Positions 2,794 to 60,052 of a stretch of DNA of 64,000 bases are shown piece after piece. A program made the translations under genes and the position numbers. The stretch is taken from contig OZ024742.1 in assembly GCA_964016885.1 (NCBI GenBank), positions 285,696,001-285,760,000 on the forward strand, given 5' to 3'. The DNA is from Eledone cirrhosa. Taxonomy: Eukaryota. Under the pieces are notes generated by a model, which did not search any database, was not told the origin of the DNA, and saw only the letters and a list, made by a program, of their open reading frames with translations. Each line of letters begins with the position of its first letter. Position 1 is the first letter of the stretch.

Positions 2794-2844
<51 letters not shown>

Positions 2845-2848
<4 letters not shown>

Positions 2849-3370
2849 AAAGTTCTATTTAAAATTGTTGGGATACAAGTAAATATTTTTATAACTGATA
2901 TAAAGCACTCGACAAGTATTTGGAGTAGATATACGATATTAATAAATGGAAACTATATTTATAAAACCATATTTATTTCATTATACATATTTCAGGGATA
3001 CCAAATTAAATTATGGTATGCCTTCATCAGACAAAATACAATATGTAACAGTTTTACAAATAAGCTTTGACGTACCATATTAAAATGCAACCATTGTTTT
3101 TGGAAGTCATCCGGATGACTTCCAAAAACAATGGTTGCATTTTAATAGGGTACGTCAAAGCTTATTTGTAAAACTTATATTTTTGGAAGTCATCTGGATG
3201 ACTTCCAAAAACAATGGTTGCATTTTAATAGGGTACGTCAAAGCTTATTTGTAAAACTGTTATATATTGTATTTTCTCTGATGAAGGCATACCATAATTT
3301 AATTTGGTATCCCTGAAATATGTATAATGAAATAAATATGGTTTTATAAATATAGTTTCCATTTAATATC

Positions 3371-4120: not shown

Positions 4121-4375
4121 GACTGAACTTGAACCGTTAAGGTATGATTCCTGGGTATGTCACTATTTATAAAACAAACTTTGTATTTTATCTGATGAGG
4201 GCGTACCAAAGTTTTGGTACCCTTGAAATATATATAATATAATAAATATGGTTTTATAAATATAGTTTCCATTTATTAATATCATTGATATTATACTCCA
4301 GAAAACTTGTTGAGTGCTTTTAATCTGTTATAAATATATTTGTTGAATTACCAACAAATTAAATATCCCTTTGCT
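4121..4375 (+). mobile_element. Family A mini-element with hammerhead at 4184-4244
   Basis: TATTTTAT-CTGATGA-GGGCGTACCAA..TTGGTACCCTT-GAAA-TATATA-TA-ATATAATA. The upstream ~70 bp match the unit of the 43.5-45 kb array. Confidence 0.8.
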
Positions 4376-5271: not shown

Positions 5272-8200
5272 TTAATTGTAAGTTGTGATGTTGCTGTTCC
5301 ACTCATATTTTCTATTTAATTTTGGTTGTAATTCTTTTATGTTTATTGCCTCTGTAATTTGTCTAAACATTGCGTCTTTTCTGTGTGTAGATTCTATTTT
5401 TATTTCTATGTTCTCTAATTTACCCTTGTGTTCTATCTTAGCATGTTGGTAGAGTACAGATGATTCTTTATTATCTTGAAGGTCTCGCCAGTGTTCATTT
5501 ATTCGTTCCCCTACACTACGAGCTGTCTCACCTATGTACACTATATTTTTGTCTCTACATTGTCCTTCAGTACATCTTATGCTATACACTACATTTCTAG
5601 TTTTACAGTTAATATGGGGGCTTATTTTACAGGTTATACATTTCTTATCTATACATGAGGGTCTTTGAAAAGGGTATGTCTTGCTAATAAGTGTTTTTAC
5701 GGAGGTACCTGGTCTTTCTACTATCTTAATATTGAGTTTATGTTTATTTAGGGCCCTTCTAAATTTGTAAGCTAATTCACCTCTAGGGGTTGTATTGATG
5801 AACATTACACTCTGGTATTTATTGCTATCATACCATGAGTTTATTCTATTAGCCTTGTTCCTAGTTCTTTCTATTTTATTCCAAAATTTGCTCCTATACA
5901 AGGGGCAGGTCCCATTTATGTCATTATTTACCATTTTTTCCCATTTGGTTCTGGCTCCTCTATACACTCTGATTTTATCTCTCTGATTGTAGCCAGAGAA
6001 CTGCATACGGTGGATGAAGTGTTGTATGTGTCTCTCTAGTTCTTCGGGGTTGCACATGCGGGACACATTTCTCATCACCCGTTCCAAATCCGCAATCAGT
6101 ATGTTGATTTTGGTATGGTCCGAAACGGCCGAGTTTCGGTGGATCAGATGTTTGGAAGTCATGGGTTTGGCATAATGGGAATGGAGGATCTGTTTTTTGT
6201 TGTTAATGGTATCTAACCAGAGCTCTGTGTCTAGTACAGGTAATCGATGGTTGGGGTGTTTACTTGGGTAGTCTATAGTAACTCTAATACTCTGGTGGAT
6301 GGAGTTTGCTATTTTCTGGATGCTTTCCATTGTGTTTTTCTCTAGTTCCTGACTGTTCTCTAGTGGGGGTGTCTTAACTACGATGTTTATATCATCTACG
6401 TAGCGGGAGTACATTATCAGGGTTAAGGGGTCTTCTAATTGTTCTTTAAGTTTAAGTTTAAATCTACTGTCCCACCATACCATGAATAAGTTAGCTATGT
6501 CGCCTGCAATGCTAACACCAATGGCTGCTCCTTCCTCTTGGGCATATGTTTTCCATTAAATTTGAACATATGTTCCTTAAGGGTTAGTTTTATGCTGGCC
6601 CCTACCGCATGTGCAATCATTTTCTTCAGTTCATAGTGGTTTTCGGGTGTCCGTATGGCTCTGGTCCACCCGTTCCATCTATCTGTGTGGGCTTTCTTGG
6701 CCATTGAGGTAATGGTAGGTGGTCTGCCTCTTGCTGGTCTTGTAGGGCACAGGTTGCTAAGGTCATATGTGTCTAGGTAACTATTACTATAGGTAAGATT
6801 AAGTAGGAGTCCCAGCTCACTGGTATCAATCCCACGGAACTCAACCTTGCTCTCACTGATCATTTCTACGCATTTCTCCACAGCAAAATCCACGTCAATA
6901 GATGGATACAGGGACACAACATCCATACTGCCTATTATGCAGTTTGTTAGGTCCCCAGATCGGTTACTCACGCCGATTCTGCTGAGGAGGTCCTCCGTGC
7001 TGTCACATACATCTGGGGACATTTCAATGATGGGGCGTATGATCAGGGAGAGGAAGTAGGACAGTCTGTAGTTACTAGCAATGTTAGCTCCACAGACTGG
7101 CCGTGTTGGTGGTCCCGCGACAGGGTCACAGCCCGTTTTATGGTCTTTTCGAAGCCCATACAACGCCGGCACGTCATTGTTCCAGGCCTGGAAGTTGTTG
7201 GCAGTCCTTTTGTTTGGCTGCATTATATTCGTCCACATCACCATATGGGCATTGAGGGCTTTTTCTCTATCCTCATGCTCCTGTGGTGTTACCTCTCTTG
7301 TGTTAGTGATGTGGGGTTGCATTGCCTGGATGTAGTTTGGCAGGCTGTCAACCGACATTCTGCCAGACTTGTCTGTTGGAAAGCATGCTATCTCTCCATT
7401 ACGTGAGCGCTGCATGAGCTTACGCAAGCCATTTGCAGATTTTGCTCCCAGTTGCTGGGCCTCCATTCTATTATGCTTCTTGTTCTATAATATTTCTAAG
7501 TTCGGATCTAGCTATACTAAATTGTGCTTCTGTTTGTTCATCGACCTGCGACGGCAATTGCGTGCGTTTGTTAAATGGTAAAGTCGTGGCGTGGACTCGT
7601 CGCAGGTCGAATGATTTATCGGAGGGATTATAAAACGTAGAGTTACAGGCTGCTGCTTTATGTGTACTAGTGCTATTGTTATTGTTAATTGTGTTGTTTC
7701 TATTTCTATTTCCACCAACAGCCTCATGGTTGTTTCTATGTCTCTCATAATTACTCCTGTCTCTTTCGCCTGGCTCATTGTTGTTATCTACCCTATTTTG
7801 TCTGTCTGTGTGTTCGTCTTGGTTATTCTCTTTGTCCTTAGTCTCCCTTCTCTTTTTAATCCTATTACTTTCCCTTATTTCTGTGATTTCTGTGCTACTG
7901 TCATTACTTGTTTTCTGTGTCTGTGTGTTTGTTAAGATTGTGGTGGTGATGTGAGGCATTGAATGTGTGTGTGTTGTTGTTGTTGATGTGTGCTGTTGTT
8001 GATGTGTGTTGTTGTTGTCTCCGTGTGTGTTATTGTTGTTGTGTGTGTTGTTATTGTTGTTTGTGTCTGCGTGTCTGTTGTTGTTGTTTCTGGATATGTT
8101 GTTATTGTTGTTGTTGTTGGTGTGTGTGTTGTTGTTATTGTTGTTTGTGTCTGTGTGTCTGTTGTTGTTGGGGTGTGTGTTGTATATGTGTGTGCGTATA

Positions 8201-8985
8201 TTGTTGCTTTTGTTTTTGTTTTTGAGGCTCAAGCGTAGTTTTGTAAATGATTTTTCTATTTCTGACAGACAACTAATCATATTTACCTTCTTGAATGTCG
8301 CAAATTTCGGGGGTAAACATAACACAGACATCTCATCGTTATCAATTCTCGCGTTACCAAATATATTTGTGTTGTTGTTGTTGTTGTTGAACTCTTCTGT
8401 TAATGAGGTGTCGGCCATATTTATACCGTCAATTTTGTCGGGATATCTATTGGTATTCTCTATAGTATCCTGATTTAGCTTTATCTGCTTAAGCCACTTT
8501 AGTTTCTTGTTAAAGTGCTTATCACATTCTTGAGTAATGTACTGTTCTTCAGGATGTATAAGGCTTATAAATATTAGTTTCTCTCTTGGTGTGGTGATCC
8601 TAGATATTTCTTGTATTAGGTTACGCTTATGTTTTTCTTGATGACTTAATTCTCTATAGATCTTCTTTTTTATGTTTAGAATTAATGTTCGTTTTAGCCT
8701 ATCTGCTTGTTTTTTGGTGAGTTGTAATCTTCTAACGTCGGTGTTGATGGTGTTGGTGTAGACTTGGGATGAGGCACATTGTTTTATGAAGTGTAGTTGT
8801 CGAGATGTTATGGTTTTTCGTAGACAACAGAACATGGTGGTTTTCAGTATCTTGTTAGCCTGGCTAAGGCTTACGATATTTCGTTTCTGAATTTGTTTAG
8901 CAAGATTCTTTATCTGAAATCGTGTGTTGAAACCGATATTGTTATACTTTGGGAGGGTTATGTTGCCAATAAGAAACACACGCAC
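5272..8985 (-). pseudogene. PLE polyprotein (N-terminal domain, RT, Cys linker, GIY-YIG endonuclease) broken by two frameshifts at about 7470 and 6550
   Basis: Motifs TDKSGR, RPVCGA, GSMDVVSLYPSID, YSRYVDDI, LPVLD, HYAKPM, CxxxxCxxC and NVVYSIRC..YIGETARSVGERINEH. Restoring one A at about 6550 gives GKTYAQEEGAAIGVSIAGDIANLFMVWWD. Confidence 0.9.
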
Positions 8986-9101
8986 CAGTTGCTTTCACTT
9001 CAATTTATTATATATTTATAAATTTATAAATTTATAAATTTATAAATTTATAAATTTCTGGTTGGTTGGTTGGTTCCACAACCAGATAGTTGTTTATATA
9101 T

Positions 9102-13761: not shown

Positions 13762-14569
13762 GTAAGTATGTATACGTACATACATATATGTATACAGACG
13801 TACAGTAGTATGTATACATACATGCACACATATACATACTTACATTTAAGTATCAGCCGTACTAAGAGTGAGAAATGAAATTTCATTTCATTCTTTTCCA
13901 TTTATCGTTTCCGGTGCGCCCGGCCGACTAACCCACTCGATATGCAAATTAGGCTGCTCAGCCGTTAATATGCATAAGGAAAGTATATACTTTCAAACGT
14001 TCAATCATCTGACAGGAAGGTATACAATGCTGACGATAGCTAATAAGCTTGAAACTAGTACCTCGTTCCGTGTCAGTGTTGAGCAAAAAGGCGACGATGG
14101 TTGCCGAACACTGTACGGCGTAATTCGGGCTGTTTGTTTACAAACAAACCGAACATTATAATAAATGTTCGGTAAACCCATACATACATATGTGTGCATG
14201 TATGTATATATATACATACTACTGTACGTCTGTCTACATATATGTATGTACGTATACATACTTACATTTAAGTATCAGCCTGGACTAAATTAGAATCTTT
14301 AGCGTAGTAATAAATAGCCGAACTTTTCAAGGGGTAATTCTTTATATGGGAAGATTGCAGTTGTCAAAAGGATTGGTCAAAATTTCTTGTAAACACAGTT
14401 AAGTCTTTCATGGAGGTAGGTGGGAGGAGGGGGTGGCTGAATTTATCTGTAGAACAATGAGGGAGTGGGTGGAGCCGTCAATCGTTGAAAGTGAATTCTA
14501 TACAGCAAATTCTAAGGAGTGTGTATGAAATTAGACTAGGTAGAAAGCAGGCGAAAAAGAACCACTCAA

Positions 14570-15866
14570 TAATCCATGACATAAATCTAGATGGACAACA
14601 AATTACCTCCAGGCTTGGGGTCGCCGACCGCACTGAACCTCTCGACCCACTGACTCCCTTCTTCACCCTGAAGGACCATAAATTCGACTTCGACTGCAAA
14701 CCATCCATCAGGCTTATAAACCCGACGAAGTCGGATATAGGGAGAATCAGTAAAAAGATCCTAGACCGCGTTATACCAAAAGTTAAGCAAAACGCGAGAC
14801 TTAGCCTTTTGGTCAGCACCCAGGAAGTCATCTCATGGTTCAGGAATATTGAGGACAAACGGGACACCAAATTCATCCAGTTCGACATAGAGAGCTATTA
14901 CGCCTCTATTACCTTACGGCCGCTTTGGACTTTGCCAAAACACTCACACACATTACCGACCAGGAAAGAAACATCATTCTCCACGCCAAGAAGACAGTCC
15001 TCCTTTTCGACAACTCCAAGTGGATAAAGAGAGCTCCCGACTCCCCTTTCGACGTCAGTATGGGCGCCACCGACTCAGCCGAGGTGACCGATCTGATAGA
15101 ATTATTCCTACTACATAAACTCACCGAAATGTTTCCTGCATTCGGCGGTGGATTGTACCGAGACGATGGGCTCCTTACCCTTAAAGGGTACAACCCCAGT
15201 AGTACAGACTGGGTCCGTAAACAAGTAATCAACTTCTTCCTGGACTGGTGATTTAAAATCACCCTACAAACGTCCCTAACTCGAGTCAATTTCCTGGACG
15301 TTTCCCTCAACCTCGAAAATGATCTGTACTACCCATACAGGAAACCAAACGACAACCTTCACTACATCCACCGCCGCTCTAACCATCCTAGAAACATCAC
15401 CAATAACATGGTTGAAAACATCTCCCTCCACATATCTCGTTTGTCCGCTAATGAGCAGATATTCGATGAACATGAGCCTTATTACAACCAGGCCCCCAAA
15501 CGAAGAGGCTTTCGGGAGGAAATATCCTTTGATCCAGCTTCCCTTAGCGGAACCAGCAGGCGACGTCGCAGCTCACGCCACGTAACGTGGTTTAACCCTC
15601 CCCACAATGCCGAGGTGGCAACACCAATCGGGAAAATCTTCTTTAGGCTCCTCGAAAAACACTTCCCACCACAACACCGCTACCACAACATAATCAACAA
15701 AAACACCATCAAACTCTCCTACAGCACCACACCCAACTTCGCACAAAACATCGCCTCCTCAAACAACAAGAAACTCAACTCCTATGGAAGAAACAACCTA
15801 GATATTAGTGGAGAGCCGACCAGGATGTGTAACTGCCCTGATAGATCTACGTGCCCCCTGAATTGA
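14570..15866 (+). pseudogene. PLE reverse transcriptase fragment (GLYRDD/WFNPP-type family B), frameshifted, truncated before GIY-YIG
   Basis: FFTLKDHK, RLINPTKSDIGRISKKILD, FIQFDIESYY, FDVSMGATDSAEV, GLYRDDGL, VTWFNPP, IKLSYS, CNC..CPL. Confidence 0.85.
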
Positions 15867-18737: not shown

Positions 18738-21320
<2,583 letters not shown>

Positions 21321-23938: not shown

Positions 23939-25556
23939 TTAATTAGGTTTATAATATTTAAATGTTTTTCTCAGTTTATGATTACACGATATAATTAATT
24001 CCTGTCGCTTATTTAATAGGATATCCTTAGATTTCATTATTTCAAATAGTTCTTGGGAACACAATCTACATTCATTTCTATTATTTTGATAAGGGGTGGC
24101 TCTTTTGAGCACACTCCAGGTCATATCATATTCTATATTCTTATTTCTATAACTATTAATTTTTTTTCTGCTAGAGATGTTGTATTAGCCAGTGCGGCAT
24201 TTTTAAAACTATGTTTGTGGGTATTAAACCTTACCTTAAAATTGTTAGAAGTAGCTCCTATATATGAGCAAATAGAATCTTTAGTTTTAACTTTACATTT
24301 ATAAACTATGTTGTTAACAAGACAATTTCCTTTTAATGGGCAGTTTACTTTGTTTCTACAGTTACAACCTTTCGTTAATTCTGTATTTGAGGAGATATTA
24401 TGGTTAGTTTGATGTATTGGTGGTATACTTATGGTTTTTTTACATTTATATGCATTATAGGCACTTATATTTTGTTTTATGTTTTTGGTTGTTGAGTATG
24501 AGAATATAACTGTTGATCTATTTAAGATTTGATGGTATTTGTGGTTTGGCGGGAAGTTTTTCTCTAGGATATAACAAATTTTTTTAGCAATATTATCCTT
24601 AATTTGTAAATTAAATGGAGCATTATACCAAGTAACTCGTCTATTACGGTTTCTATGTTGTTTATTATTTTTATAGGTTGCATCGTGATGTTTACTAGGA
24701 GGATTAATGTTAATGACCTCACCACGCACATTTTTAGTTAGATTTATTGATTTAGGTGTTATATCTTGTTTATTAGGAGTTTTATTATTAACATTTATTA
24801 GAGTTGCATGATGAGTAGTTTTTTGAGAGTTACTATACTTTATATTAGAGGAGTTAGAGAAATTGGTTTTATGTTGGTATTTTGGGGTATAGTATGAGTG
24901 GCATTTAGGTGTGTACTTTTCATTTGGTGTTTGTTGGTAATATGAGGTTGTATGTTTATAGTGTTTTTAGTAGAAGGTATATATTCCAATCTATTTTTGT
25001 GGCCACTTCTATCTAGAGCTTCGTTATAGAAGGTCGCATTTTTATCAAATACATCTTGGTTAGACGAAAGGTTAGAAATTCTAAGTGATATATTATATGC
25101 AAGGTTTTTAAGGATAGATTTAGGGTGATTAGATTGTGAGTGTATGTAGTGTAAGTTTTGGTTGGGTTTATGGTAAGGTTGGTAGATACCCGTAGCTAAG
25201 TCTAAAGTTATATCTAGGAAATTAACTACTTTACTTGTGTTTTCAAAAGTAATATGAAGACTATAATAGTCTTTAAGGAAAGTTCTAATAAGCTTTTTGT
25301 TTTTTTCTATTTCTGAGAGGCTAAGGTTGTTGGAAAGAAGAAGACAGTCATCACGATATAAACCACCTTTAAGGTGGGGAAAGGAAGCATTTATGTTAAA
25401 AAGAAGAAAGAGGCCCACAAGATCAGTAATTTGGGTAGAATCGCTTGAACCCATAGTAATATCAAATAGATTACTATATGTGTTTCTGGTCCAGTATTCA
25501 TTCTGAAATTCAATAAGTGTTAGTCTAGCATGTGTAATAATATTAATGTCATCCAA
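23939..25556 (-). pseudogene. PLE RT plus GIY-YIG, frameshifted and 5'-truncated
   Basis: FDITMGSSDS, GLYRDDCL, VNFLDITLDL, YHKPN, VTWYNAPF, CNCRNKVNCPLKGNCLVNNIVYKC..YIGATSNNFKVRF, CRLC..E. Confidence 0.88.
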
Positions 25557-25969
25557 AGTTAAGTTAGATCTATTTGTAACTGTAGAAACTGTTGTAACTG
25601 TAGAAACAAAGCAAACTGCCCATTAAAAGGAAATTGTCTTGTTAACAACATAGTTTATAAATGTAAAGTTAAAACTAAAGATTCTATTTGCTCATATATA
25701 GGAGCTACTTCTAACAATTTTAAGGTAAGGTTTAATACCCACAAACATAGTTTTAAAAATGCCGCACTGGCTAATACAACATCTCTAGCAGAAAAAATTA
25801 ATAGTTATAGAAATAAGAATATAGAATATGATATGACCTGGAGTGTGCTCAAAAGAGCCACCCCTTATCAAAATAATAGAAATGGATGTAGATTGTGTTC
25901 CCAAGAACTATTTGAAATAATGAAATCTAAGGATATCCTATTAAATAAGCGACAGGAATTAATTATATC

Positions 25970-26865
25970 GTGTAATCATAAACTGAGAAAAACATTTAAA
26001 TATTATAAACCTAATTAATAATATATATTTTAGAAATTAATATATAATTTAATTTAAATGTAGTTAACCTATAATTTTAATTTAATTAAAATTCTACTAC
26101 AGATAAGATTAAAAAATATTGTGTAATCATAAATTGTGAAAAACTTTTAAATATTATTAACATAATTAATATATACTTTGGAAATTAATTTATAGATTAA
26201 TTTTAGTTTATTTAACCTTTTATTAAAATTCCTTTACAGATGAAATATAACAAAATATCGTGTAATCAATAACAGAGAAATACTTTTTAATATTATAAAC
26301 CTAATTAATGTACAATTTAGAAATTAATTTATAAATTAATTTTAATTTAGTTAACCTATAATTTTAATTTAGTTAGCTTAAAATTAAAATTTTAATACAG
26401 ATGGATTGCAGAATATCATGTAATCATAAACTGAGAAAAACTTTTAAATATATACCTAATTAATATATTCTTTACAAATAAATATATAGATTCATTTTAA
26501 TTTTTGTTAACCTATAATTATATTCTACTATAGATAAAATACAAAATCTGCTTTAATTATTATAAACCTAATTAACATATACTATAGAAATTAATATATA
26601 ATTTTTAGTTTAGTTAACCTATAATTTATATTCTACTACCGATGAAATACTTGATTTGGTTTTCCCTATTACTAAATTCATTTCCTAAAATTGATACCAT
26701 AATGTTAATATTTTTAATTTAGTTATGCTATAATTAATACTCTACTACTGTTTAACTTCAAAATTCCGCTTTAAATATTATAAACCTAAGTAGTATACAC
26801 CTTAGAAATCAATATATTAACTATTTTTAATTTAGTTAAGCTATAATTAATAGTCTACTTATATT
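25970..26865 (+). repeat. Degenerate tandem repeats (~100-160 bp, about 6 units) built from the PLE ORF end and 3' UTR; mirror at about 23090-23990
   Basis: Recurring gtaatcataaac..aaatattataaacctaattaat..tagaaattaat..agttaacctataatt..ttctacta. Confidence 0.65.
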
Positions 26866-32220: not shown

Positions 32221-32824
32221 ATGGAAGCCAGTTAGGACAAGTAATTGTGTATTCTATACAAATCTAAGATGGTCACATCACAACAATTTTTCAAATCGAT
32301 CCACGTTCAGCAATAAAAAATCGATACCAATAATATTAAGTGCTGTATTCGTACACATCAAATGAAGGAACATACTGAACAGGATGTAGTTATTCAAAGG
32401 ATTGTTGAAGTTTTGCCAGTATATTTAAAATTTTACTGTAACGCTTCAATTCATACATTTTGACTTTAGAATTTAAATTAAACGATTTAATTAACAACTT
32501 AATTTCTGCTGATCATGAGCAAATTATTTTATGAAAAATGCCTACTATAAGGGAGATAACAATGAAGACAAAATCCTTATGGGATTTTCCATGAAAATTA
32601 AAAGTTGCAATTACTTTTACATTTTTCGAGCTTTTTTTACCAAATGTGAGGCAGGCATTGCCTATGCCGTCGAGGTAATACATGAAGATTATTTTTTCTA
32701 AAGTGTATGCTTTAAGGGAGAAAGCAATCTAAAAACAATCCTTATGGGACTTTCCATTCAAACCGTTGGGACCTACAACTATTACATTTTTAAAGTAATT
32801 TCGTCCACATTTAAGGCAGGCATT

Positions 32825-34466
32825 ATCTATGCTTCCAGCTGTATTCGTGATCCTCTGTCCATGTGGATAAAATATAGGGATGAACTAACAGACGACTACA
32901 GACACCAAGCACAATTGCTGCTTCCAGAAATAGAGGTCGGCTTTAGTAATGAATTATACAACAGAGCTCTCATTTATATTGAGGACAAGTTAGCTCTGAT
33001 TGGAGGAAAGGTTTTACGTGACTACGGTTTACCAGAAACTCATCGCACGGACTCAAACAAACTTCCCATAGATATCATACAGGAGACTTCTTATGACATC
33101 CATGATCTCGGCCTCTACGTCACACATAATGAGCCAAAACTTCTAGCTGATCAGCGACTGGCTTATACCACCATTACTGAATCGGTATTTCAAAGAAGAG
33201 GTGGCATATTTTTCCTCGATGTTCCAGGGGGGACAGGAAAAACTTTCTTTACTAAACTTCTTCTTGCAAAGGTTAGACAGAATAAGGACATAGCAATAGC
33301 AGTTGCGTCCTCTGGAATCGCAGCAACTTTGCTCCCTGGTGGAAGGACGGCACATTCAGTTTTTAAATTGCCCCTTGATTTGGCAAAATTGGAAACTCAT
33401 ACTTGTCATATCACCAAAAACTCCGAAAGGGCTCATCTGCTGCGAAGGTATCACCTTATTGTTTCGGATGAGTGCACAATGGCGCACAAAGGTGCTCTTG
33501 AGGCACTAGACAGGTCTTTGCAAGACATACGAGATTGGAGTGATGTTATGGGGTGTCACCATTCTGCTATCAGGAGACTTCAGACAGACTCTTCCTATAA
33601 TACCGAAAGGAACAAGAGCAGATGCGGTAAATGCATGTCTTAAGTCTTCGCCATTGTGGCGACAAGTGACATCATGCGTGCAAGATTGCATGGGGACCCT
33701 GTGTCATCAACATTTTCTGGAGACATTCTTACAATAGGAGATGGTAACCTACCTCCGGATACAGATGGACACATAGCAATTGATCACATCTTCAATGTAG
33801 TTGAAACTGTTGATGATCTCAAGGCGAATGTATTCCTGAACTTGCGTGATAACTATACGAATCTTAATTGGCTATGCGAAAGAGCCATTCTTGCACCCAA
33901 AAATAACACGGTTAGCTGTATTAACGATCAGCTTCTTCAGCTTCTTCCTGGATGTCCACGGATATGTAAATCTATTGATACTGTATGTGATCCACATGAT
34001 ACGGTCAATTATCCAGTTGAATTTCTAAATTCTTTAAATCCTCCCGGTTTACCTCCTAAAACATTGGTTCTGAAAGAGGAAACGCCAGTTATTTTGCTGA
34101 GAAATATCACCCCTCCAAAACTATGCAATGGTACACGCCTTGTGGTTAAAAAACTGTCTCCACTTAGTATTGACGCTACCATTCGGCGAGGATGTGATAA
34201 TAACAAAAATTAGCCTGATTACATCAGGCGTGGATACTCCCTTCTCCTTTCACCGAACCCAATTTCCCCTTCGTGTTGCCTCTGCGATGTCCATAAACAA
34301 GTCGCAAGGTCAAACTCTATCTGTCGCTGGAATTCATTTGGATGAACCTTGCTTTTCGCACGGACAATTCTACGTTGCCTGCTCACGAGTTGGCAGTAGA
34401 GATAATCTCTTTGCGTTTGTTCCGAAAAGAAAAACAAAGAATATCGTCTATCCTGAAGTGCTTTAG
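32825..34466 (+). pseudogene. Helitron Pif1-like SF1B helicase, frameshifted
   Basis: FFLDVPGGTGKT, AVASSGIAATLLPGGRTAHS, DECTM, GDFRQTLPII, RAILAPKN, LLRNITPPKLCNGTRL, QFPLRVASAMSINKSQGQTL, FSHGQFYVACSRV, KNIVYPEVL. Confidence 0.92.
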
Positions 34467-39033: not shown

Positions 39034-39059
<26 letters not shown>

Positions 39060-39067
<8 letters not shown>

Positions 39068-39494
39068 ATAAATGGAAACTATATTTATAAAACCATATTT
39101 ATTTCATTATATATATTTCAGGGATATCATATTAACAATATGCTATGCCTTCCTCAGACAAAATACAATATAAACAGTTTTATAGATAAATAGATTCGAC
39201 ATACCGTAACAACATCTACTTGCATTTGAGAAGGTTCTCAAATGCAAGTAGATGTTGTTACGGTATGTCGAATCTATTTATCTATAAAACTGTTTATATT
39301 GTATTTTGTCTGAGGAAGGCATAGCATATTGTTAATATGATATCCCTGAAATATATATAATGAAATAAATATGGTTTTATAAATATAGTTTCCATTTATT
39401 TAATATTGTAAATATACTCCAAATATTTGTCGAGTGCTTTTATATCAGTTATAAATATTTACTAGTTGTAACCCAACAATTTAAATATAACTTT

Positions 39495-41849: not shown

Positions 41850-42357
41850 AGGTCAAATACCAACCCTACTAGCATCTACAAACTGACCAATGAGAATTAA
41901 GACTATTCCTGCTGACAACATTAAATTATTCCTAACAAGCTCATATGTCCCAAGGTTCTGATACCATCAACACTATAAACACAGAGCTGGCATATCTAAG
42001 AACTGACTAACTGTCTGATGTGGTCATAGCCATTCAATGGCTATCATCGAAATATATATAGCAGTAAATAACGGATTATGAGTTCATGCAGTTGACTTAT
42101 GTTTCGTCACTATATATATATATATATATAACAAGCCTGGACCCTTGGAATTGATGGTAAAATCCAGTACAGGGTTTTTGCGACAGCTAAATCAATAATA
42201 CTGTCTGCTTAAAGCAATAAGCTTTTGGTATAATGATCGAACGAAGAATATCACGTTATCAACAGGTATTTTTATATTAAACATGTTTAAACTCTACTAA
42301 TGTATTGAGTACTTTACTTACTGTGGTTACCCTCGATTGAACCAGGGAGCCTCCAAA

Positions 42358-42507
<150 letters not shown>

Positions 42508-42623
42508 ATGTGTGTGCGTGTGTGTAAATGAAGTATTACCGTCAGAAAGGTACAGGAAAAAAGATTGCTCTATGTAGGCTACAGAGCTTATTAGTTATGT
42601 AATAAACAACATAAGATAATTAT

Positions 42624-42684
42624 TTCATTTACCAGTGGTTTCTTGAAGACAGATGTTGTGTCTGACTTCAGTCGTCAGAATGAA
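42624..42684 (-). ncRNA. Minimal hammerhead (family D); inverted partner at 45438-45498, truncated relative at 54167-54216(-)
   Basis: Reverse complement TTCATT-CTGACGA-CTGAAG..CTTCAA-GAAA-CCACTGG-TA-AATGAA. Confidence 0.75.
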
Positions 42685-42773
42685 TAAAAACATGGTGTAT
42701 TTATTAAATATGCATTTGAAAACAAAATTCAGGAAATATGAAAGTGAGAAACGGGCGAAAAGGAAAAAGGGAA

Positions 42774-42811
<38 letters not shown>

Positions 42812-43331
42812 TAAATATCCAGAACATACACACACTCAGCTACGCGCATATACTAAAAAGTACGTAGAAGGATACTTTCTCATATAAGCGTATTTGCGTC
42901 TACATAGAAAAACGGACAGGAACATAAATACATACACATACATATACACAGCAGATATATACAAAAATACATACACACATATACACAAATATATATGCAC
43001 TCAAAAATGTACACGCAAATATGGACAGTAGTTAAGAAACTGGAATAACTAAATAAATAAATAAGAACAAAAAATACCAAAAATATATGTATATATATAT
43101 TTAGAAGAGATATTTAATTTGTTGGAAATCAACAAATATAGATGTTTATAACTGATTCAGAGCACTCGACAGTATTATTGATTTAGCTGTCGCAAAAACC
43201 CTGTACTGGATTTTACCATCAATTCCAAGGGTCCAGGCTTGTTATATATATATATATATATATAGTGACGAAACATAAGTAAGTATTCAATGATATTAAA
43301 TAAATGGAAACTATATTTATAAAACCATATT

Positions 43332-43393
43332 TATTCTATTATATATATTTCAAGGGTACCAAAAATGTTGGTACACTATCATCAGATAAAATA
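43332..43393 (-). ncRNA. Family A hammerhead immediately left of the array
   Basis: Reverse complement TATTTTAT-CTGATGA-TAGTGTACCAA..TTGGTACCCTT-GAAA-TATATA-TA-ATAGAATA. Confidence 0.75.
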
Positions 43394-43481
43394 CAAAGTG
43401 TGTTTTATAAATTTGGTACCCTTGAAATATATATAATAGAATAAATATGGTTTTATATTTTGGTTTTATATATGGTTTTAT

Positions 43482-45060
43482 ATTTTGTATTTTATCTGAG
43501 GATTGAACCGTTAAGGTATATTATCCTTGGTCATGTCAAATATTTATAAAACATTTTGTATTTTATCTGAGGATTGAACCGTTAAGGTATATTATTCTTG
43601 GTCATGTCAAATATTTATAAAACATTTTGTATTTTATCTGAGGATTGAACCGTTAAGGTATATTATTCTTGGTCATGTCAAATATTTATAAAACATTTTG
43701 TATTTTATCTGAGGATTGAACCGTTAAGGTATATTATTCTTGGTCATGTCAAATATTTATAAAACATTTTGTATTTTATCTGAGGATTGAACCGTTAAGG
43801 TATATTATTCTTGGTCATGTCAAATATTTATAAAACATTTTGTATTTTATCTGAGGATTGAACCGTTAAGGTATATTATTCTTGGTCATGTCAAATATTT
43901 ATAAAACATTTTGTATTTTATCTGAGGATTGAACCGTTAAGGTATATTATTCTTGGTCATGTCAAATATTTATAAAACATTTTGTATTTTATCTGAGGAT
44001 TGAACCGTTAAGGTATATTATTCTTGGTCATGTCAAATATTTATAAAACATTTTGTATTTTATCTGAGGATTGAACCGTTAAGGTATATTATTCTTGGTC
44101 ATGTCAAATATTTATAAAACATTTTGTATTTTATCTGAGGATTGAACCGTTAAGGTATATTATTCTTGGTCATGTCAAATATTTATAAAACATTTTGTAT
44201 TTTATCTGAGGATTGAACCGTTAAGGTATATTATTCTTGGTCATGTCAAATATTTATAAAACATTTTGTATTTTATCTGAGGATTGAACCGTTAAGGTAT
44301 ATTATTCTTGGTCATGTCAAATATTTATAAAACATTTTGTATTTTATCTGAGGATTGAACCGTTAAGGTATATTATTCATGGTCATGTCAAATATTTATA
44401 AAACATTTTGTATTTTATCTGAGGATTGAACCGTTAAGGTATATTATTCTTGGTCATGTCAAATATTTATAAAACATTTTGTATTTTATCTGAGGATTGA
44501 ACCGTTAAGGTATATTATTCTTGGTCATGTCAAATATTTATAAAACATTTTGTATTTTATCTGAGGATTGAACCGTTAAGGTATATTATTCTTGGTCATG
44601 TCAAATATTTATAAAACATTTTGTATTTTATCTGAGGATTGAACCGTTAAGGTATATTATTCTTGGTCATGTCAAATATTTATAAAACATTTTGTATTTT
44701 ATCTGAGGATTGAACCGTTAAGGTATATTATTCTTGGTCATGTCAAATATTTATAAAACATTTTGTATTTTATCTGAGGATTGAACCGTTAAGGTATATT
44801 ATTCTTGGTCATGTCAAATATTTATAAAACATTTTGTATTTTATCTGAGGATTGAACCGTTAAGGTATATTATTCTTGGTCATGTCAAATATTTATAAAA
44901 CATTTTGTATTTTATCTGAGGATGAACCGTTAAGGTATATTATTCTTGGTCATGTCAAATATTTATAAAACATTTTGTATTTTATCTGAGGATTGAACCG
45001 TTAAGGTATATTATTCTTGGTCATGTCAAATATTTATAAAACATTTTGTATTTTATCTGA
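43482..45060 (+). repeat. Tandem array of 22 near-identical 71-bp units
   Basis: Unit ttgaaccgttaaggtatattattcttggtcatgtcaaatatttataaaacattttgtattttatctgagga; ctga starts at 43496, 43567, 43638 ... 45057. Confidence 0.97.
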
Positions 45061-45133
45061 TTTTTGGTACCCTTGAAATATATATAATAGATTAAATATG
45101 GTTTTATAAATATAGTTTCCATTTATTTAATAT

Positions 45134-45194
<61 letters not shown>

Positions 45195-45437
45195 AAAGTA
45201 AAGATCAAAATCAAAAACCAAATAAAGTAAAAAAAGGGGGGGGGGGGCGTGTAGACAACAATAGGTGTGAGTGTGCGGGGGAAGGGGTATAAATAAAAAC
45301 AACTTAAATATAAACAAATGGACAAGATATGCATATACATATATATACACATACATACACATATACACACATACATGCATATATACCTATACACACATGC
45401 AAACACACACGTATATATGTGTATATATATATATATA

Positions 45438-45498
45438 TTCATTCTGACGACTGAAGACTAACACAACATCTGTCTTCAAGAAACCACTGGTAAATGAA
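45438..45498 (+). ncRNA. Minimal hammerhead (family D)
   Basis: TTCATT-CTGACGA-CTGAAGAC..GTCTTCAA-GAAA-CCACTGG-TA-AATGAA. Confidence 0.75.
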
Positions 45499-45540
45499 AT
45501 AATTATCTTATGTTGTTTATTACATAACTATATATATATA

Positions 45541-54451: not shown

Positions 54452-57400
54452 GGGTATGACATTAAACTACATCCAGTGGCAAGGCTCCAGTTCGGGAATT
54501 CAGGAGATGTGGGGAATGTGGAGTTACCCCTTAGTTGTCATGACTCCCAGGTCTGCCCTGGCCCGGGGTGGTAGTACCTGTTAGGGCTCCATTTATGGGT
54601 TAAATAACTACCTTATTCGAGTGGCGCCGGTAAGGTATTGTCAGCCATTGAAAAGAAATATGGAGAGTCGATCTAACAGCACTAGGGTTAGAGCCCCTAA
54701 TTACACTGTCAAGGAGCAGCCTGGTCGTTATGACTCTGCTGGCTTAGAGCCACAGAGAGGGCCAGTGGATGATGGATCAGCTGTCTCTGAGACAAATATA
54801 AAGAATGCAGTTTTGTCCTGCAGAAGAGCCATCAAAATGGGCACTTTGAATGTGAGGACTATTCGAACGCTGGAGAAGAGAGAGGAGTTGGGACATCTGT
54901 TCGAGGAGAGTGGTATACAGATACTTGCGATCCAAGAACACAGGATTCTACACGATGAGCCCATGAGGAGTGTGATGATCGGGAGGAAGAGCCAGCTCAT
55001 CACTACATCGGCAGTGAAGAACACAACAAATGCTGCAGTGGGAGGAGTGGGTTTTGTGTTCAGTGCAAAAACCAATCTGTTGGTGAGGGAAATAATGCCT
55101 ATCTCCCCGCGAGTGTTGAGGGTGACCTTCAATGGAAACCCATGACTGACAGTCATCGCAGCCTATAGTCCAACCGAGGGGGACAGTGATGTGAATGCGG
55201 AGGAGTTCCATGAGGAGGTGTGTAGGGCTGTCAACACCACTCAGGCACACAATATCCTGTTTGTTTTGGGGGACTTCAATGCACATCTGAGTAAGGAGGG
55301 CAGTGAAGATCCTTGCTGGTACTTCCATAACAACACCAACCGAAATGGAAGACTACTGAGAGACACCCTGCTGGAGGAGAACTTGATGGCGACCAACCTA
55401 AGGTTTAGGAAGAATCTGGGGAAGATGTGGACCTACATCTCAGATATGCACCTGTCCAAGTCCCAGATTGATTTCATTCTGGTGAGGAAAAAGTGGCGGA
55501 ATAGTGTTCTGAACACGGAACCATACAGTTATTTCAGTACACTGGGTAGTGACCACCGGCTTGTTATGAGTGAGGTCCACGTGAGCTTAAGAAAGAGCAA
55601 GGCTCAGCCCCGGAGAACAATCTATGACTGGGGAGCTTTCAAGGAAGATGATAAGCTACAGGAGAGGTTCACAGTGGAAGTGAGAAACAGGTTTAGTGCT
55701 CTGTGTGGAGAGTCAGAGGAGAGAGAGATTGGATGGACTGAGGAGAGTGTGACGAGGAGGTACGGGCACTTCACCAATGCAGTGGCGAAAGCAAGTGAAA
55801 CCCTGGTGCCGAGGAAAAAGAACAAAGGGAAGCACGTCAGCTCTGCAAACCCAAAAGTGTGTGCGGCCAGAGAACACCTGAAAGCTGCCAGGGACCAATT
55901 CTATGCTGATCCTACGGAGGAGAGGATGGAGACTGTGGAGGTGATGAGGGAAGAGCTCTGTACCGCTTACACTGAGGTCAGAGAGGAGGCACTGATAGAG
56001 AAGATCAGAAGTGTGGAGAGAGCGGTTGACAGATCTGGATGTAAGGAGAGCTGGATGATCATCAACGAGATCGCAGGGAGGAAGAGAAGGTGTTCGAGTC
56101 AGATCCAGGGAACGGGGCCCGAGGATAGGAAGAGGAAATGGCTAGACCATTTTAGGACCCTACTAGGAGAGCCACCCTCCACAGCCCAGAGCACTGGGGA
56201 GATCAGGCGGCTGTTTGAGGAACTGGATGTTGAGACAGAGCCCTTCACCAGAGAGGAGCTTCAGAGAGCCAAGAAGAAGATCAAGGAGGGCAAGGCTCAT
56301 GGAGAAGATGGAGTGGCATCAGAGGTGATGAAGAGGTGTGATTTTGATGATATCATCCTGGGGTTCTGTAACGGGGCACTGGAGAAAGGAGTTTCCCCGA
56401 ATCAGTGGAGGATCAGTAACATCGTCCCAGTGCCAAAGAAGGGAGATCTCTCTAACACCAACAACTACCGGGGGATCTCACTGACGTCACTTGTGGCAAA
56501 GACCCTCAACAGGATGATTCTTAACAGGATCCAGCCTGAGATGGAGAAGAAGCTCAGGGACAACGATAACGGCTTCAGAGAGGGTAGATCAACCACCAGT
56601 CACATCCTGATGCTGAGGAGGATATTAGAGGGAGCTAGAGCAAAGTGCCTTCCTGCGGTCATGGTTTTCATTGACTTTAGGAAGGCCTTTGATTCTGTGG
56701 ACCGTTACTGCCTGATGAAGATCTTACAGGCTTATGGAATCCCCAAGAGGATAGTGGACCTGATATCACTGCTCTACACCAACACCAAAGCCCAAGTCAT
56801 TACACCTGATGGGATGACAGAGTTCTTTGAGATACTGGCTGGAGTGCTCCAGGGAGATACATTGGCTCCCTACCTTTTTATCATCGTAGTGGACTATTGT
56901 ATGCGCCTTGCACTGGAGAAACACCAGGACTGTGGCTTTACTGTAGGAGAGTTGGGGCGAAAAAGGTATCGGATGCTGAATTTGCCGACGACATAGTTTT
57001 GGTGACAAATACAGTGAAGGAGGCAGAGGATTTGATGCGGGAGGTTGAGACTGTGTCGATGAGTGTGGGGCTGAGAATGAATGAGACTAAAACAAAATAT
57101 CTGGTAGAGAATGTTGAGAAGCCAGAGGGGATCACTAATGTAGGCGGGAAGCCGCTGGAATTGGTTGAGGACTTCCTGTATTTGGGAGCAAAGATTGGGA
57201 ATACGGAGGATGATGTGGTTGAGAGGAAGAGCAAGGCCTGGGCGGCGTGCCACAGCTTGAGATCGGTGTGGAAGTCGGACCTTCGTAGAGACCTGAAAAT
57301 CCGCCTCTTCATTGCTGTAGTGGAGTCTGTGCTGCTGTATGGGTCTGAGACTTGGACACTGACCAAGAAACTCACTCAGATGGTGGATGGGTGCTACACG

Positions 57401-57739
57401 AGAATGCTGAGGATGGCTCTGAACATTAATCAGTATACACTGAGGATGAAAAACTCAGAGCTGTATGGGAGCATCCCAAAAGTCAGCTCAAAAGTGACAC
57501 AGAGGAGACTGAGGTTGGCTGGACATGCTCACCGACATCCAGAGTTGACATTGCACTCAGTGCTCCTTTGGGAGCCCCTACATGGACACACTAGAAGAGG
57601 AAGACCAAGGTTAACATATGTTGATGCCCTAAGGACAGACACTGGTCTGTTGGAGATGCAGGATATGGCAGCGATAATGAGGGACAGAGACCGCTGGAGA
57701 GAACTCGTCCATGGATCTCGGGAATTTTACCCGCCTTAG
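54446..57739 (+). mobile_element. Near full-length RTE-type LINE
   Basis: Short 5' UTR and a single APE-RT ORF, flanked by (TA)n. Confidence 0.92.
54621..57739 (+). pseudogene. APE endonuclease plus reverse transcriptase, with an in-frame TGA at 55143-55145 and a frameshift at about 56945
   Basis: GTLNVRT, LAIQEHR, LGDFNA, QIDFIL, SDHRLV, NYRGISL, GFREGRST, FIDFRKAFDSV, GVLQGDTLAPYLF, EFADDI, FLYLG, LLYGSETW, RRLRLAGH. Confidence 0.93.
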
Positions 57740-57857
57740 ATATATATATATATATATATATACATACATACACATATACATACACGTACAAATACACATA
57801 CATATACATACATACACACATATATATCAACATATCCATACATACACATACACACAA

Positions 57858-57946
<89 letters not shown>

Positions 57947-57948
<2 letters not shown>

Positions 57949-60052
57949 ACTTTGAATAACTTTGAATAACTTTGAAATGTTTTGGCCAGTATTGGCCCAG
58001 GCCATGTCTAACTTAATAGCACCACCTGGCGAAGTCTTTCAATTCAGGATTTGGGCACCATGGCCCATTCGAGAAGAGAATTACTGTTTGCGGAGACATA
58101 TCCGGGTGTGGGTGGTTTGTCCGGGATTACTTGGAGGAATTTGTCCAAAGACTTCTTGAATTTTGTGTGGTCAGTTTCTGTTTTGACGTGTCCTGGTGTG
58201 ATGTTGAAGAGAGCAGGGCCGATTGAGGTGAAATAATTGTGCCGTATTGTTGTTATGAGTTGCGATTTAGATTTTTGAATGGGACGGATAGCACGGGGCC
58301 CAAGCCTTGGGTGTATCTTGAAGGCGATGCCAACATCATTTGGGCAGTGATGATGGAACATTTTCCACATCATGCAGATAATATAACGCTCACGGCGACG
58401 TTGGAGTGAGTAAAGTTTCAGGTTTTCCAATCGACCCCAGTAGTCAAGGTCTGACATGCCATCTATCTTTTTCGTGATTGCCCTTTGAGGAGCTTCAAGT
58501 TTCATGATACTTTGTTTCGTGTGGGGAGACCACAGTGGACAACAGTATTCAAGGTGTGGTCGGGCGAAAGTAGAGAAGAGAAGGATAATGGTGCGGGAAT
58601 CTCTCGACTGGAAGGTTCTGAGGATCCAGGAACACATTCTGCGGGCCATGTCAACTTTGCTGCTTATATGCGTGGTCCAGCTTATGTTGCTGTCCACGGT
58701 TACTCCCAAGTCTCTGATGTTGTTAGATGCCACGAGAGTTTCCCCGGAGGGAAGGGAGTACGGGAGTTTCAGAGCATCCTCTTTTCCAAAGTGGATCAGT
58801 TCGAATTTGTCTTCGTTCAGTAACATGTTGTTCTTTTCTGCCCATTGGGTAACAGCCAGTAGGTCTGACTGAAGGCTTATCCGGTCATCCACGCCATTGA
58901 TGACCTTTTGGAGCTTGGAATCATCAGCGAAAATTTTAATGTTGCTGTGTTTGATGATGTCAGTGATGTCATTAATATAGATGATGAAGAGAAGTGGGCC
59001 CAACACAGTGCCTCGTGGGACTCCACTACTGACTTTGGCTGGGCTTGATTTGACTCCCTCAACTACAACATGTTGGGTTCTGTTTGACAGGAAGCTCTTG
59101 ATCCACTGCAGCAGCTTTCCAGTGACACCAATATTGGACAGCTTTCTCAGTAGAATGTTATGATCAACCCTGTCAAAGGCCTTGCTGAAATCAAGGTAGA
59201 TAACATCAGTGTTGGAACCCTCTCCCAAGGCTCTCAAAATGTCATCAAAGTGATGCAGTAGTTGCGTCAGGCAATCCCTTCCATTACGGAATCCATGCTG
59301 GTTGGAGTTCAGCATATTGTTACTCTCAAGGAAGTGGGTCATTCGCGATCTCACCACTCGCTCAAATACCTTAATGATATGAGAGGTGAGTGAGATTGGA
59401 CGGTAATTCACGGCAAGGGATTTGTTTCCCTTTTTGAAAACTGGGACAACAGACTGGGATAGAAGGTTTTCTGGCACATATCCAGCATCCAGTGAGTTCC
59501 GCCACAGATTGGCAAGAGGAGAAGCAAGTTGGTGTTGACACGCCTTCAAGACACAAGCAGGGAACCTATCGGGACCTACTGCTGAATTATGCTTGATTTC
59601 CTTTATTGCCGCCAAGACATCAGGGGCGCCAAACGTTATGTCCGATAAGGTGTAATGGGGAGTAACATCGCCGATACAGCCCAGATCGGCCATATCAGGA
59701 TTGCTGAAAACAGAGCAGTATTGTTTCTGCAGTATCTCACCCATGGTTTTAGCATTGTCTTGAAGAGTGCCATTTTCATCAATTAGAGGGCCAACAGTAG
59801 AGCCAGTGATTTTGTGTTTTTTTGCAAATGAAAAGAACACTTTGGGATTGAGTTTGATCTTCTCAATGGCCTAGGCCTCTTCAGCTCTTCTCTGATTGTT
59901 GATGAGGGACATTATGTTGTTTTGGAGGTTATGTTTTTTAATCTCTAGTGATGAAATGGCAGTCAAGTTGATGTGTTGCTGCTGACAGTATTTCAGCTTG
60001 TTGATTTTTTTGTTCGTTCTCTTAATTTTTCTGATGAGCGTTTTTCTATTTC
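57947..60052 (-). mobile_element. 5'-truncated CR1-group LINE with short tandem-repeat tail
   Basis: RT ORF; tail reads (ttcaaagtta)x3 on the - strand at 57947-57976. Confidence 0.88.
58044..59840 (-). CDS. CR1-type reverse transcriptase (598-aa open stretch, 5'-truncated)
   Basis: NYRPISLTS, QHGFRNGR, YLDFSKAFDRVDH, SGVPRGTVLGPLLFIIYIND, FADDSKL, RDLGV, RPHLEYC, LYSLQRRRER. The QG motif reads RG. Confidence 0.85.
   Translation of the reverse strand: MFFSFAKKHKITGSTVGPLIDENGTLQDNAKTMGEILQKQYCSVFSNPDMADLGCIGDVTPHYTLSDITFGAPDVLAAIKEIKHNSAVGPDRFPACVLKACQHQLASPLANLWRNSLDAGYVPENLLSQSVVPVFKKGNKSLAVNYRPISLTSHIIKVFERVVRSRMTHFLESNNMLNSNQHGFRNGRDCLTQLLHHFDDILRALGEGSNTDVIYLDFSKAFDRVDHNILLRKLSNIGVTGKLLQWIKSFLSNRTQHVVVEGVKSSPAKVSSGVPRGTVLGPLLFIIYINDITDIIKHSNIKIFADDSKLQKVINGVDDRISLQSDLLAVTQWAEKNNMLLNEDKFELIHFGKEDALKLPYSLPSGETLVASNNIRDLGVTVDSNISWTTHISSKVDMARRMCSWILRTFQSRDSRTIILLFSTFARPHLEYCCPLWSPHTKQSIMKLEAPQRAITKKIDGMSDLDYWGRLENLKLYSLQRRRERYIICMMWKMFHHHCPNDVGIAFKIHPRLGPRAIRPIQKSKSQLITTIRHNYFTSIGPALFNITPGHVKTETDHTKFKKSLDKFLQVIPDKPPTPGYVSANSNSLLEWAMVPKS

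Follow-up and report, generated by a model that had tools for sequence, protein, structure and literature searches.

Penelope-like elements (PLEs) of the Hydra clade are the closest described relatives of the locus reported here. According to section 11 of PMC8557442, from which we take their traits, these elements encode a C-terminal GIY-YIG-type domain with DKT, CxCX5C, CxxC and CxH motifs and no CCHH, carry a hammerhead in the pseudo-LTR (pLTR) and insert at (TA)n targets, leaving an inverted 5′-truncated arm and a tail on one arm. An inverted truncated arm with a tail is the usual layout of PLE insertions (PMC8557442; PMC3846280), and for one PLE, internal initiation and extension on both strands have been reported, with hammerhead cleavage not needed (PMC11167929), which fits two primed arms. 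Non-LTR retrozymes of newt, schistosome and cricket are tandem repeats derived from PLE pLTRs that overlap a type I hammerhead (PMC7761336; 10.64898/2026.07.22.740005); an origin of such arrays from pLTRs has been proposed (10.64898/2026.07.22.740005), and their amplification is usually ascribed to circular RNA (PMC7761336). Two further systems are comparable, namely TE-derived minisatellites, which in the Haber and Louis model reviewed in PMC6947457 involve a short direct repeat and later expansion, and LINE-1 twin priming, where inverted and forward cDNAs are joined with an overlap, with an extra 5′ G and a local templated insert (PMC12016303; PMC11702581).

The locus lies in a 64,000-nucleotide stretch of Eledone cirrhosa DNA, hereafter the window, which contains no N. 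In the assembly sequence a 71-bp tandem array spans 43482-45060 with 22.3 copies and 99% matches, surrounded by retroelement fragments and microsatellites; frames at 32702-34213 we take to be helicase frames resembling a Helitron, and those at 54585-59870 are presumably LINE-like endonuclease and RT frames. Nineteen of the 22 units are identical and only three variants exist in all: a C at 43525 in the first full unit, an A at 44379, and a 1-nt deletion (T) in the unit starting at 44908. The preliminary description, made from the letters of the window, had thus correctly noticed a homogeneous array of 22 units of 71 bp with about three variants. Its span of 43482 to 45140 holds as far as 45060, the remainder being the 3′ end of the pLTR and not array. 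It had every unit ending in an intact CTGAGGA, and 22 boxes of the form TATTTTAT-CTGAGGA are indeed present, but in the final unit, which reads CTGA-TTTTTGGTACC, the box has been disrupted by the loss of 14 nt that family copies possess; this unit does run into the hammerhead 3′ half, as had been said. The 14-nt deletion occurs once genome-wide, and the repeat junction is found in this array only in the 3 Gb assembly. The features of the locus are the following, with pLTR positions numbered on one natural reference copy (L014).

4129..4290, plus strand: less closely related pLTR copy (85% to the unit); hammerhead intact, no box upstream of it
42095..42205, plus strand: donor of the templated insert, about 1 kb upstream of it, identical but for one TA repeat
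43100..43171, minus strand: continuation of the inverted arm as a "tail" (380-450), which stops at a (TA)n tract
43168..43278, minus strand: templated insert of about 105 nt, copied from 42095-42205 and standing in place of about 7 nt of the arm, with microhomologies of 3 nt and 6 nt
43276..43412, minus strand: pLTR arm in inverted orientation (239-371), which carries a whole type I hammerhead made up of CTGATGA, stem II, GAAA, a palindromic TATATA and a stem I paired at 8/8 positions
43412..43481, plus strand: joint debris, pLTR 286-331 followed by short repeated pieces of 319-331
43482..45060, plus strand: 71-bp array of 22.3 copies, the unit being pLTR 200-267 of the reference copy plus junction letters GGA
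43482..43499, plus strand: 18-bp partial unit (pLTR 250-267), a presumed short direct repeat able to seed the first duplication
43496..43502, plus strand: first of the 22 CTGAGGA boxes, joining hammerhead CTGA to GGAT/TGAACC from near the element 5′ end
43525..43525, plus strand: C of the family state, retained in the first full unit only, with T in the other 21 units
45049..45138, plus strand: close of the final unit, then the 14-nt deletion (pLTR 269-282), the 3′ half of the hammerhead and ATCATTG as the pLTR 3′ end, with the core broken
45139..45192, no strand: (TA)27 target microsatellite, right end

Judged by its letters, the unit is a 5′ stretch of the pLTR of an abundant PLE. Dispersed genome copies match it at 99% over 72 nt, which upholds the earlier view of its origin in a PLE terminal repeat that bears a hammerhead; the resemblance then noted to the copy at 4130-4198 is real (85% over 73 nt, 4129-4198), but the dispersed copies are closer. 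A 13-mer from the unit has 2,671 matches in the genome vs 20 for a control. Between two unit-bearing repeats sits a 3.75-kb element with RT and GIY-YIG-type frames (L061, in which the ORF is broken), and translations of the parent element (L061, L174, L177) contain DKT, a CxCX5C linker, and CxxC and CxH near the end, with no CCHH. A profile of 35 sequences matches a retron RT at E 0.0036, and atlas neighbours carry RVT_1 and GIY-YIG. Pfam gave no RT match on the parent ORF and, on 12 relatives, nothing beyond one sub-threshold GIY-YIG match, and a single-sequence PDB search with the parent ORF gave no significant match. Because these motifs, the C-terminal GIY-YIG-type domain, the (TA)n targets and the pLTR hammerhead are alike in section 11 of PMC8557442, the parent would by its traits match the Hydra clade. 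The elements described there have a tail of 30-40 nt and are shorter than 3 kb, vs a tail of about 90 nt and an element of about 3.75 kb here. PLE-like RT/GIY-YIG frames of other families are also present in the window (5272-8994, 14461-15866, 19312-20569 and 24133-26018).

The array sits between the inverted arm and the forward pLTR end, that is, at the head-to-head joint of one PLE insertion. From left to right the order is (TA)n; the inverted arm with its tail, 105-nt insert and intact core; pLTR 286-331 with slipped pieces; 250-267; the 22 junctions and units; the deletion; 283-361; and (TA)27. The locus hence combines pLTR identity, a type I hammerhead with palindromic helix III, an inverted 5′-truncated arm, a tail on that one arm and a microsatellite target, the arm and tail being as in the Hydra-clade section of PMC8557442. 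The local templated insert shows DNA-templated switching at the array locus. The insertion carries 1.0% substitutions vs a family median of 2.65%, and the array holds 3 variants in 1,562 bp vs 4 differences in 303 columns of the flanking arms. LINE-1 twin priming is alike in its inverted and forward cDNAs joined with overlap, its extra 5′ G and its local templated insert; it differs in the enzyme, and here both arms reach the RNA 5′ end (PMC12016303; PMC11702581). The whole locus is bracketed by an inverted pair (42592-42693 and 45429-45530, 94%) of another hammerhead-bearing repeat, which suggests nested insertions.

The preliminary description had read the unit as a hammerhead-derived module bounded by ribozyme cuts, and this reading does not survive comparison with 92 family copies at 91 loci. 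Of the boxes 3′ of the unit, 73 read CTGATGA, 3 are variants and 16 are unscored; CTGAGGA never occurs, and none of the 92 copies has a box within 60 nt upstream, where the commonest 12 letters are CCAGGGATAACT (50/92). Since the family box, CTGATGA, never reads CTGAGGA and no copy has an upstream box, the CTGAGGA box is, on the aligned copies, a product of the repeat junction; it would have formed where CTGA meets GGAT-TGAACC, either through a jump plus a 4-nt loss or through a jump plus T>G. Nor did the unit come from a hammerhead that lost G12, as had been thought: at the supposed G12 site 82 copies read GTC-AAAT, one GTC-AAAA and none GAAA (9 unscored). The copy near 39267 that had been cited does read GTCGAAT, but no box precedes it. 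In the array itself no GAAA was found within a unit or within 60 nt of the 22 boxes, the CTGANGA..GAAA motif has no match, and the unit lacks a cleavage site and a stem I 3′ strand. The cleavage site, reference position 309, is 42 nt beyond the right breakpoint (267) and outside the unit (200-267), so that neither array breakpoint (193-200 or 267) is the cut site. An upstream degenerate hammerhead is ruled out by the 0/92 count. Back-splicing was also rejected; a splice-site-like pyrimidine tract and CAG stand before 193 and GGAT after it, but there is no GT donor at 267.

Complete type I cores with a TATATA loop can be read in the minus arm and in the copy at 4192 (stem I 8/8 and 7/8 pairs), and a type I core with a palindromic loop is the PLE form of the ribozyme (PMC4209133). 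The unit, whose TTGA..TCAA region was earlier described as foldable, has no advantage over shuffled sequence in folding (z -0.34 for a single unit plus box, z +0.64 for two units), and the circular unit folds at -2.6 kcal/mol; energy folding is a poor test here, because the intact minus-arm hammerhead also scores weakly (z -0.73) and a dimer co-fold missed the active fold. In an Rfam scan of the window the 150 matches listed of 272 were microsatellite look-alikes with no hammerhead among them, which makes the scan uninformative. Matches to the CTGANGA..GAAA motif number about 30 in the window, many of them in repeats. The array, whose unit holds only half of the ribozyme core, is on these grounds not a hammerhead satellite. 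It is unlike the non-LTR retrozymes as they are treated in PMC7761336 and 10.64898/2026.07.22.740005, although derived like them from a PLE pLTR: consecutive units hold no complete core, where two consecutive complete cores are the test of the latter work, the unit does not run from cut site to cut site, its breakpoints lie off the cleavage sites, and monomers or multimers at several loci are lacking, the junction being at one locus. For the last reason the "very young satellite" first proposed is not a family, and the array is better called a single-locus minisatellite of TE origin, in itself likely inert.

Where the RNA of the parent PLE begins can be estimated from the 5′ ends of pLTR copies, 71 of 112 of which fall at 180-205 and 20 of 112 at position 184. 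This position lies in an Inr-like TCACT, a motif noted in the rotifer pLTRs of PMC3846280. Among the copies ending at 184, 14 of 20 have an extra G before 184 where the family has C, and genome-wide the letters before 184 are 61 G vs 64 A/T (p 5e-12 against an assumed 21%); all 12 G copies fetched are true 5′ ends, two of them joined directly to (TA)n. The extra G is likely cap-derived, as noted for L1 (PMC11702581), and would map the RNA start near 184, although some of the extra G could derive from the inverted arm instead. The left breakpoint of the array (193-200) falls in this 5′-end zone, 9-16 nt from the inferred capped end. A 3′ splice-site-like pyrimidine tract with CAG overlaps the pile-up at 184, for example in L166 and L167.

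In sister insertions pLTR pieces are reiterated 2-50 times; most of these reiterations lie at the same joint, and their breakpoints vary. A 13-mer pattern search (periods 18-102; 2,671 matches) revealed four more reiterated loci with 2-6 copies of 30, 31, 34 and 36 bp; one pair split by a microsatellite was dropped, and L067 (39 bp) was added separately. The arrays derived from this search end at 215-228, before the box, and the 36-bp array at L139 has several different re-entry points. Sister-array breakpoints as a whole lie at 215-228 and 283-323, so that other arrays of the family break at points unrelated to the CUGANGA box, an outcome that the preliminary description had itself named as refuting its model. 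Pairs of boxes at a spacing of 63-93 bp occur at 28 loci in sister families. Of the 20 arrays fetched (19 of these 28 loci and L222), a pattern search shows an inverted arm in 14 and inspection by eye in a further 2; boxes number 2-4 in most of the arrays and 9-21 in three. Clustering of breakpoints just after the box was set aside, as it is forced by the search pattern (whole box, period 63-93); no array with a whole family box was found at a period of 26-56 bp. Two long arrays are informative for their variants. L221 (G000:C8:17739316-17740748) is an independent 71-bp x 21 array of a sister PLE family at an inverted joint, where 51C and 54G occur together in 4/20 units, and L222 (G000:C25:7707303-7709287, minus) is a 41-bp x ~50 array of the hammerhead 3′ half only, from this or a close family, with higher-order blocks in which 10G/27C are repeated. 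Such variants shared by non-adjacent units would be the mark of DNA-level turnover, and single-template copying would not give them.

A further array, L223 (G000:C3:149688525-149689185, minus), has 81-bp units with 9 boxes at a PLE-derived locus. Its units contain CTGATGA, stem II, GAAA, TATGTA and the cut site, but the 3′ strand of their stem I derives from (TA)n and is weak, which makes L223 a candidate for a retrozyme-like array born from a PLE. The window has sister joints of its own: a head-to-head sister-family insertion at 2840-3370 has an 83-bp duplication (3097-3258) and a foldback palindrome at its joint, and at 39047-39421 lies a head-to-head sister-family pLTR pair in which the genuine boxes are CTGAGGA.

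The same complex joint, absent from the rest of the genome, recurs at all 22 junctions, and so appears to have formed once and then been copied. We consider it probable that a short duplication was seeded at PLE insertion and expanded later to 22 copies at the DNA level. In this sequence of events the PLE enzyme would have primed two cDNAs at the (TA)n target and copied the RNA toward its capped 5′ end (184); during head-to-head joining, the RT or a repair polymerase would have re-landed at 267 and so created a direct repeat of 18 bp whose copies stand 71 bp apart. One duplication would have acquired C>T, and the T unit may recently have been amplified, whether through slippage, through unequal exchange or from a small DNA circle that served as template. 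Joint seeds in general probably arose when a cDNA end ran off the RNA 5′ end and landed again. The R2 RT is capable of end-to-end template jumping, and polymerase theta makes templated insertions. A PLE RT, which the preliminary description had already placed at the birth of the array, would thus probably have taken part, anchored on the RNA 5′ end and not on ribozyme cuts. As for the proposal itself, in which a hammerhead-cut 71-nt RNA was copied by rolling circle or two tandem CUGANGA boxes exchanged unequally, we find it very improbable. Each unit does match a stem I 5′ strand plus CUGANGA, and non-LTR retrozyme units down to 51 bp have been reported (10.64898/2026.07.22.740005), yet the units of this array lack GAAA, cleavage site and stem I 3′ strand, its breakpoints lie away from 309 and those of its sisters at 215-228 and 283-323, the junction is at one locus only, and exchange between tandem boxes is excluded by the absence of a second upstream box from all copies.

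That all 22 units were made at insertion is a possible reading, though one that we think unlikely. The RT or repair polymerase would have reached the RNA 5′ end and returned repeatedly to 267, or circled a small non-ribozyme circle. The left breakpoint within the 5′-end zone, the 2-6-fold reiterations at the same joint in sister insertions, the varied re-entry points at L139 and the youth of the insertion are all in keeping with it. So is the coincidence of entry and re-entry at 267/268, since the 14-nt deletion and the repeat junction share this breakpoint, which counts against DNA expansion and fits repeated landing on one RNA end. It would have to produce the identical complex junction 22 times, however, without any dispersed source copy bearing the 4-nt change on the junction side, and the long sister arrays display DNA-level patterns. 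The array also has fewer variants than the arms predict, a weak age test (Fisher p 0.016 if all 4 arm differences are counted, 0.19 if the count is limited to the 2 unseen in other copies). The equivalent of 43525 is T in 21 array units vs 3 T and 183 C in dispersed copies, so unit 1 would need to revert to the family letter, with a chance of 0.9-2.8% on one RNA template. When growth from two units is neutral and stepwise, 1.6-4.9% of runs end with exactly one C, hence the C/T pattern, weak alone, favours neutral growth as DNA by a factor of only about two; nothing but a burst that starts from one unit would explain it easily. It is on account of the weak age test, this two-fold preference and the common 267/268 breakpoint that we call expansion as DNA probable and still give synthesis at insertion some room. 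An assembly artefact, with fewer units at the true locus, seems to us improbable. It would explain the near-perfect homogeneity, as assembly polishing could have homogenised units, and among the pieces and joints listed from four runs mapped on 43120-43580 there is no spanning read or contig piece and no 71-bp go-back joint, with depth 0 at 43472-43487 in X1 and X3. But the runs contain no more than 0.35 of the sequence words and may lack the array allele, X1 contigs include the 36-bp junction of the L139 type at depth 24, there is no N in the window, the three unit variants are distinct, and sister arrays carry structured variants.

Like the minisatellites of the Haber and Louis model as reviewed in PMC6947457, the locus consists of a TE segment in a short array at one place, is flanked by a short direct repeat and has, on our reading, expanded later; unlike in them, the insertion itself probably produced the 18-bp seed, and such seeds keep arising at a fixed position linked to the RNA 5′ end. 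The Hydra-clade section of PMC8557442 does not mention reiterated pLTR pieces where inverted arms join, nor do the passages on twin priming in PMC12016303 and PMC11702581 mention reiteration of a joint in several copies. Among the titles and abstract openings that searches of an open-licence library listed, none mentions reiteration at PLE joints, which may be published all the same; the supplements of PMC8557442, for instance, may describe Hydra pLTRs.

What matters more than the array itself is that PLE insertions in this genome repeatedly leave reiterated pLTR pieces at the head-to-head joint, near the inferred capped RNA 5′ end, a pattern that offers a concrete route from PLEs to minisatellites and retrozyme-like arrays. 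We put forward tentatively, as a speculation that we think unlikely, that the RT of a Hydra-clade PLE, a relative of telomerase, may repeatedly re-copy the 5′ segment of its RNA, giving up to 22 repeats here and seeding arrays genome-wide; where the pieces comprise a whole core, as in L223 (81 bp x 9), a retrozyme-like array would arise without circular RNA. If the PLE enzyme itself reiterates in this way, it would amount to telomerase-like repeat addition in a PLE.
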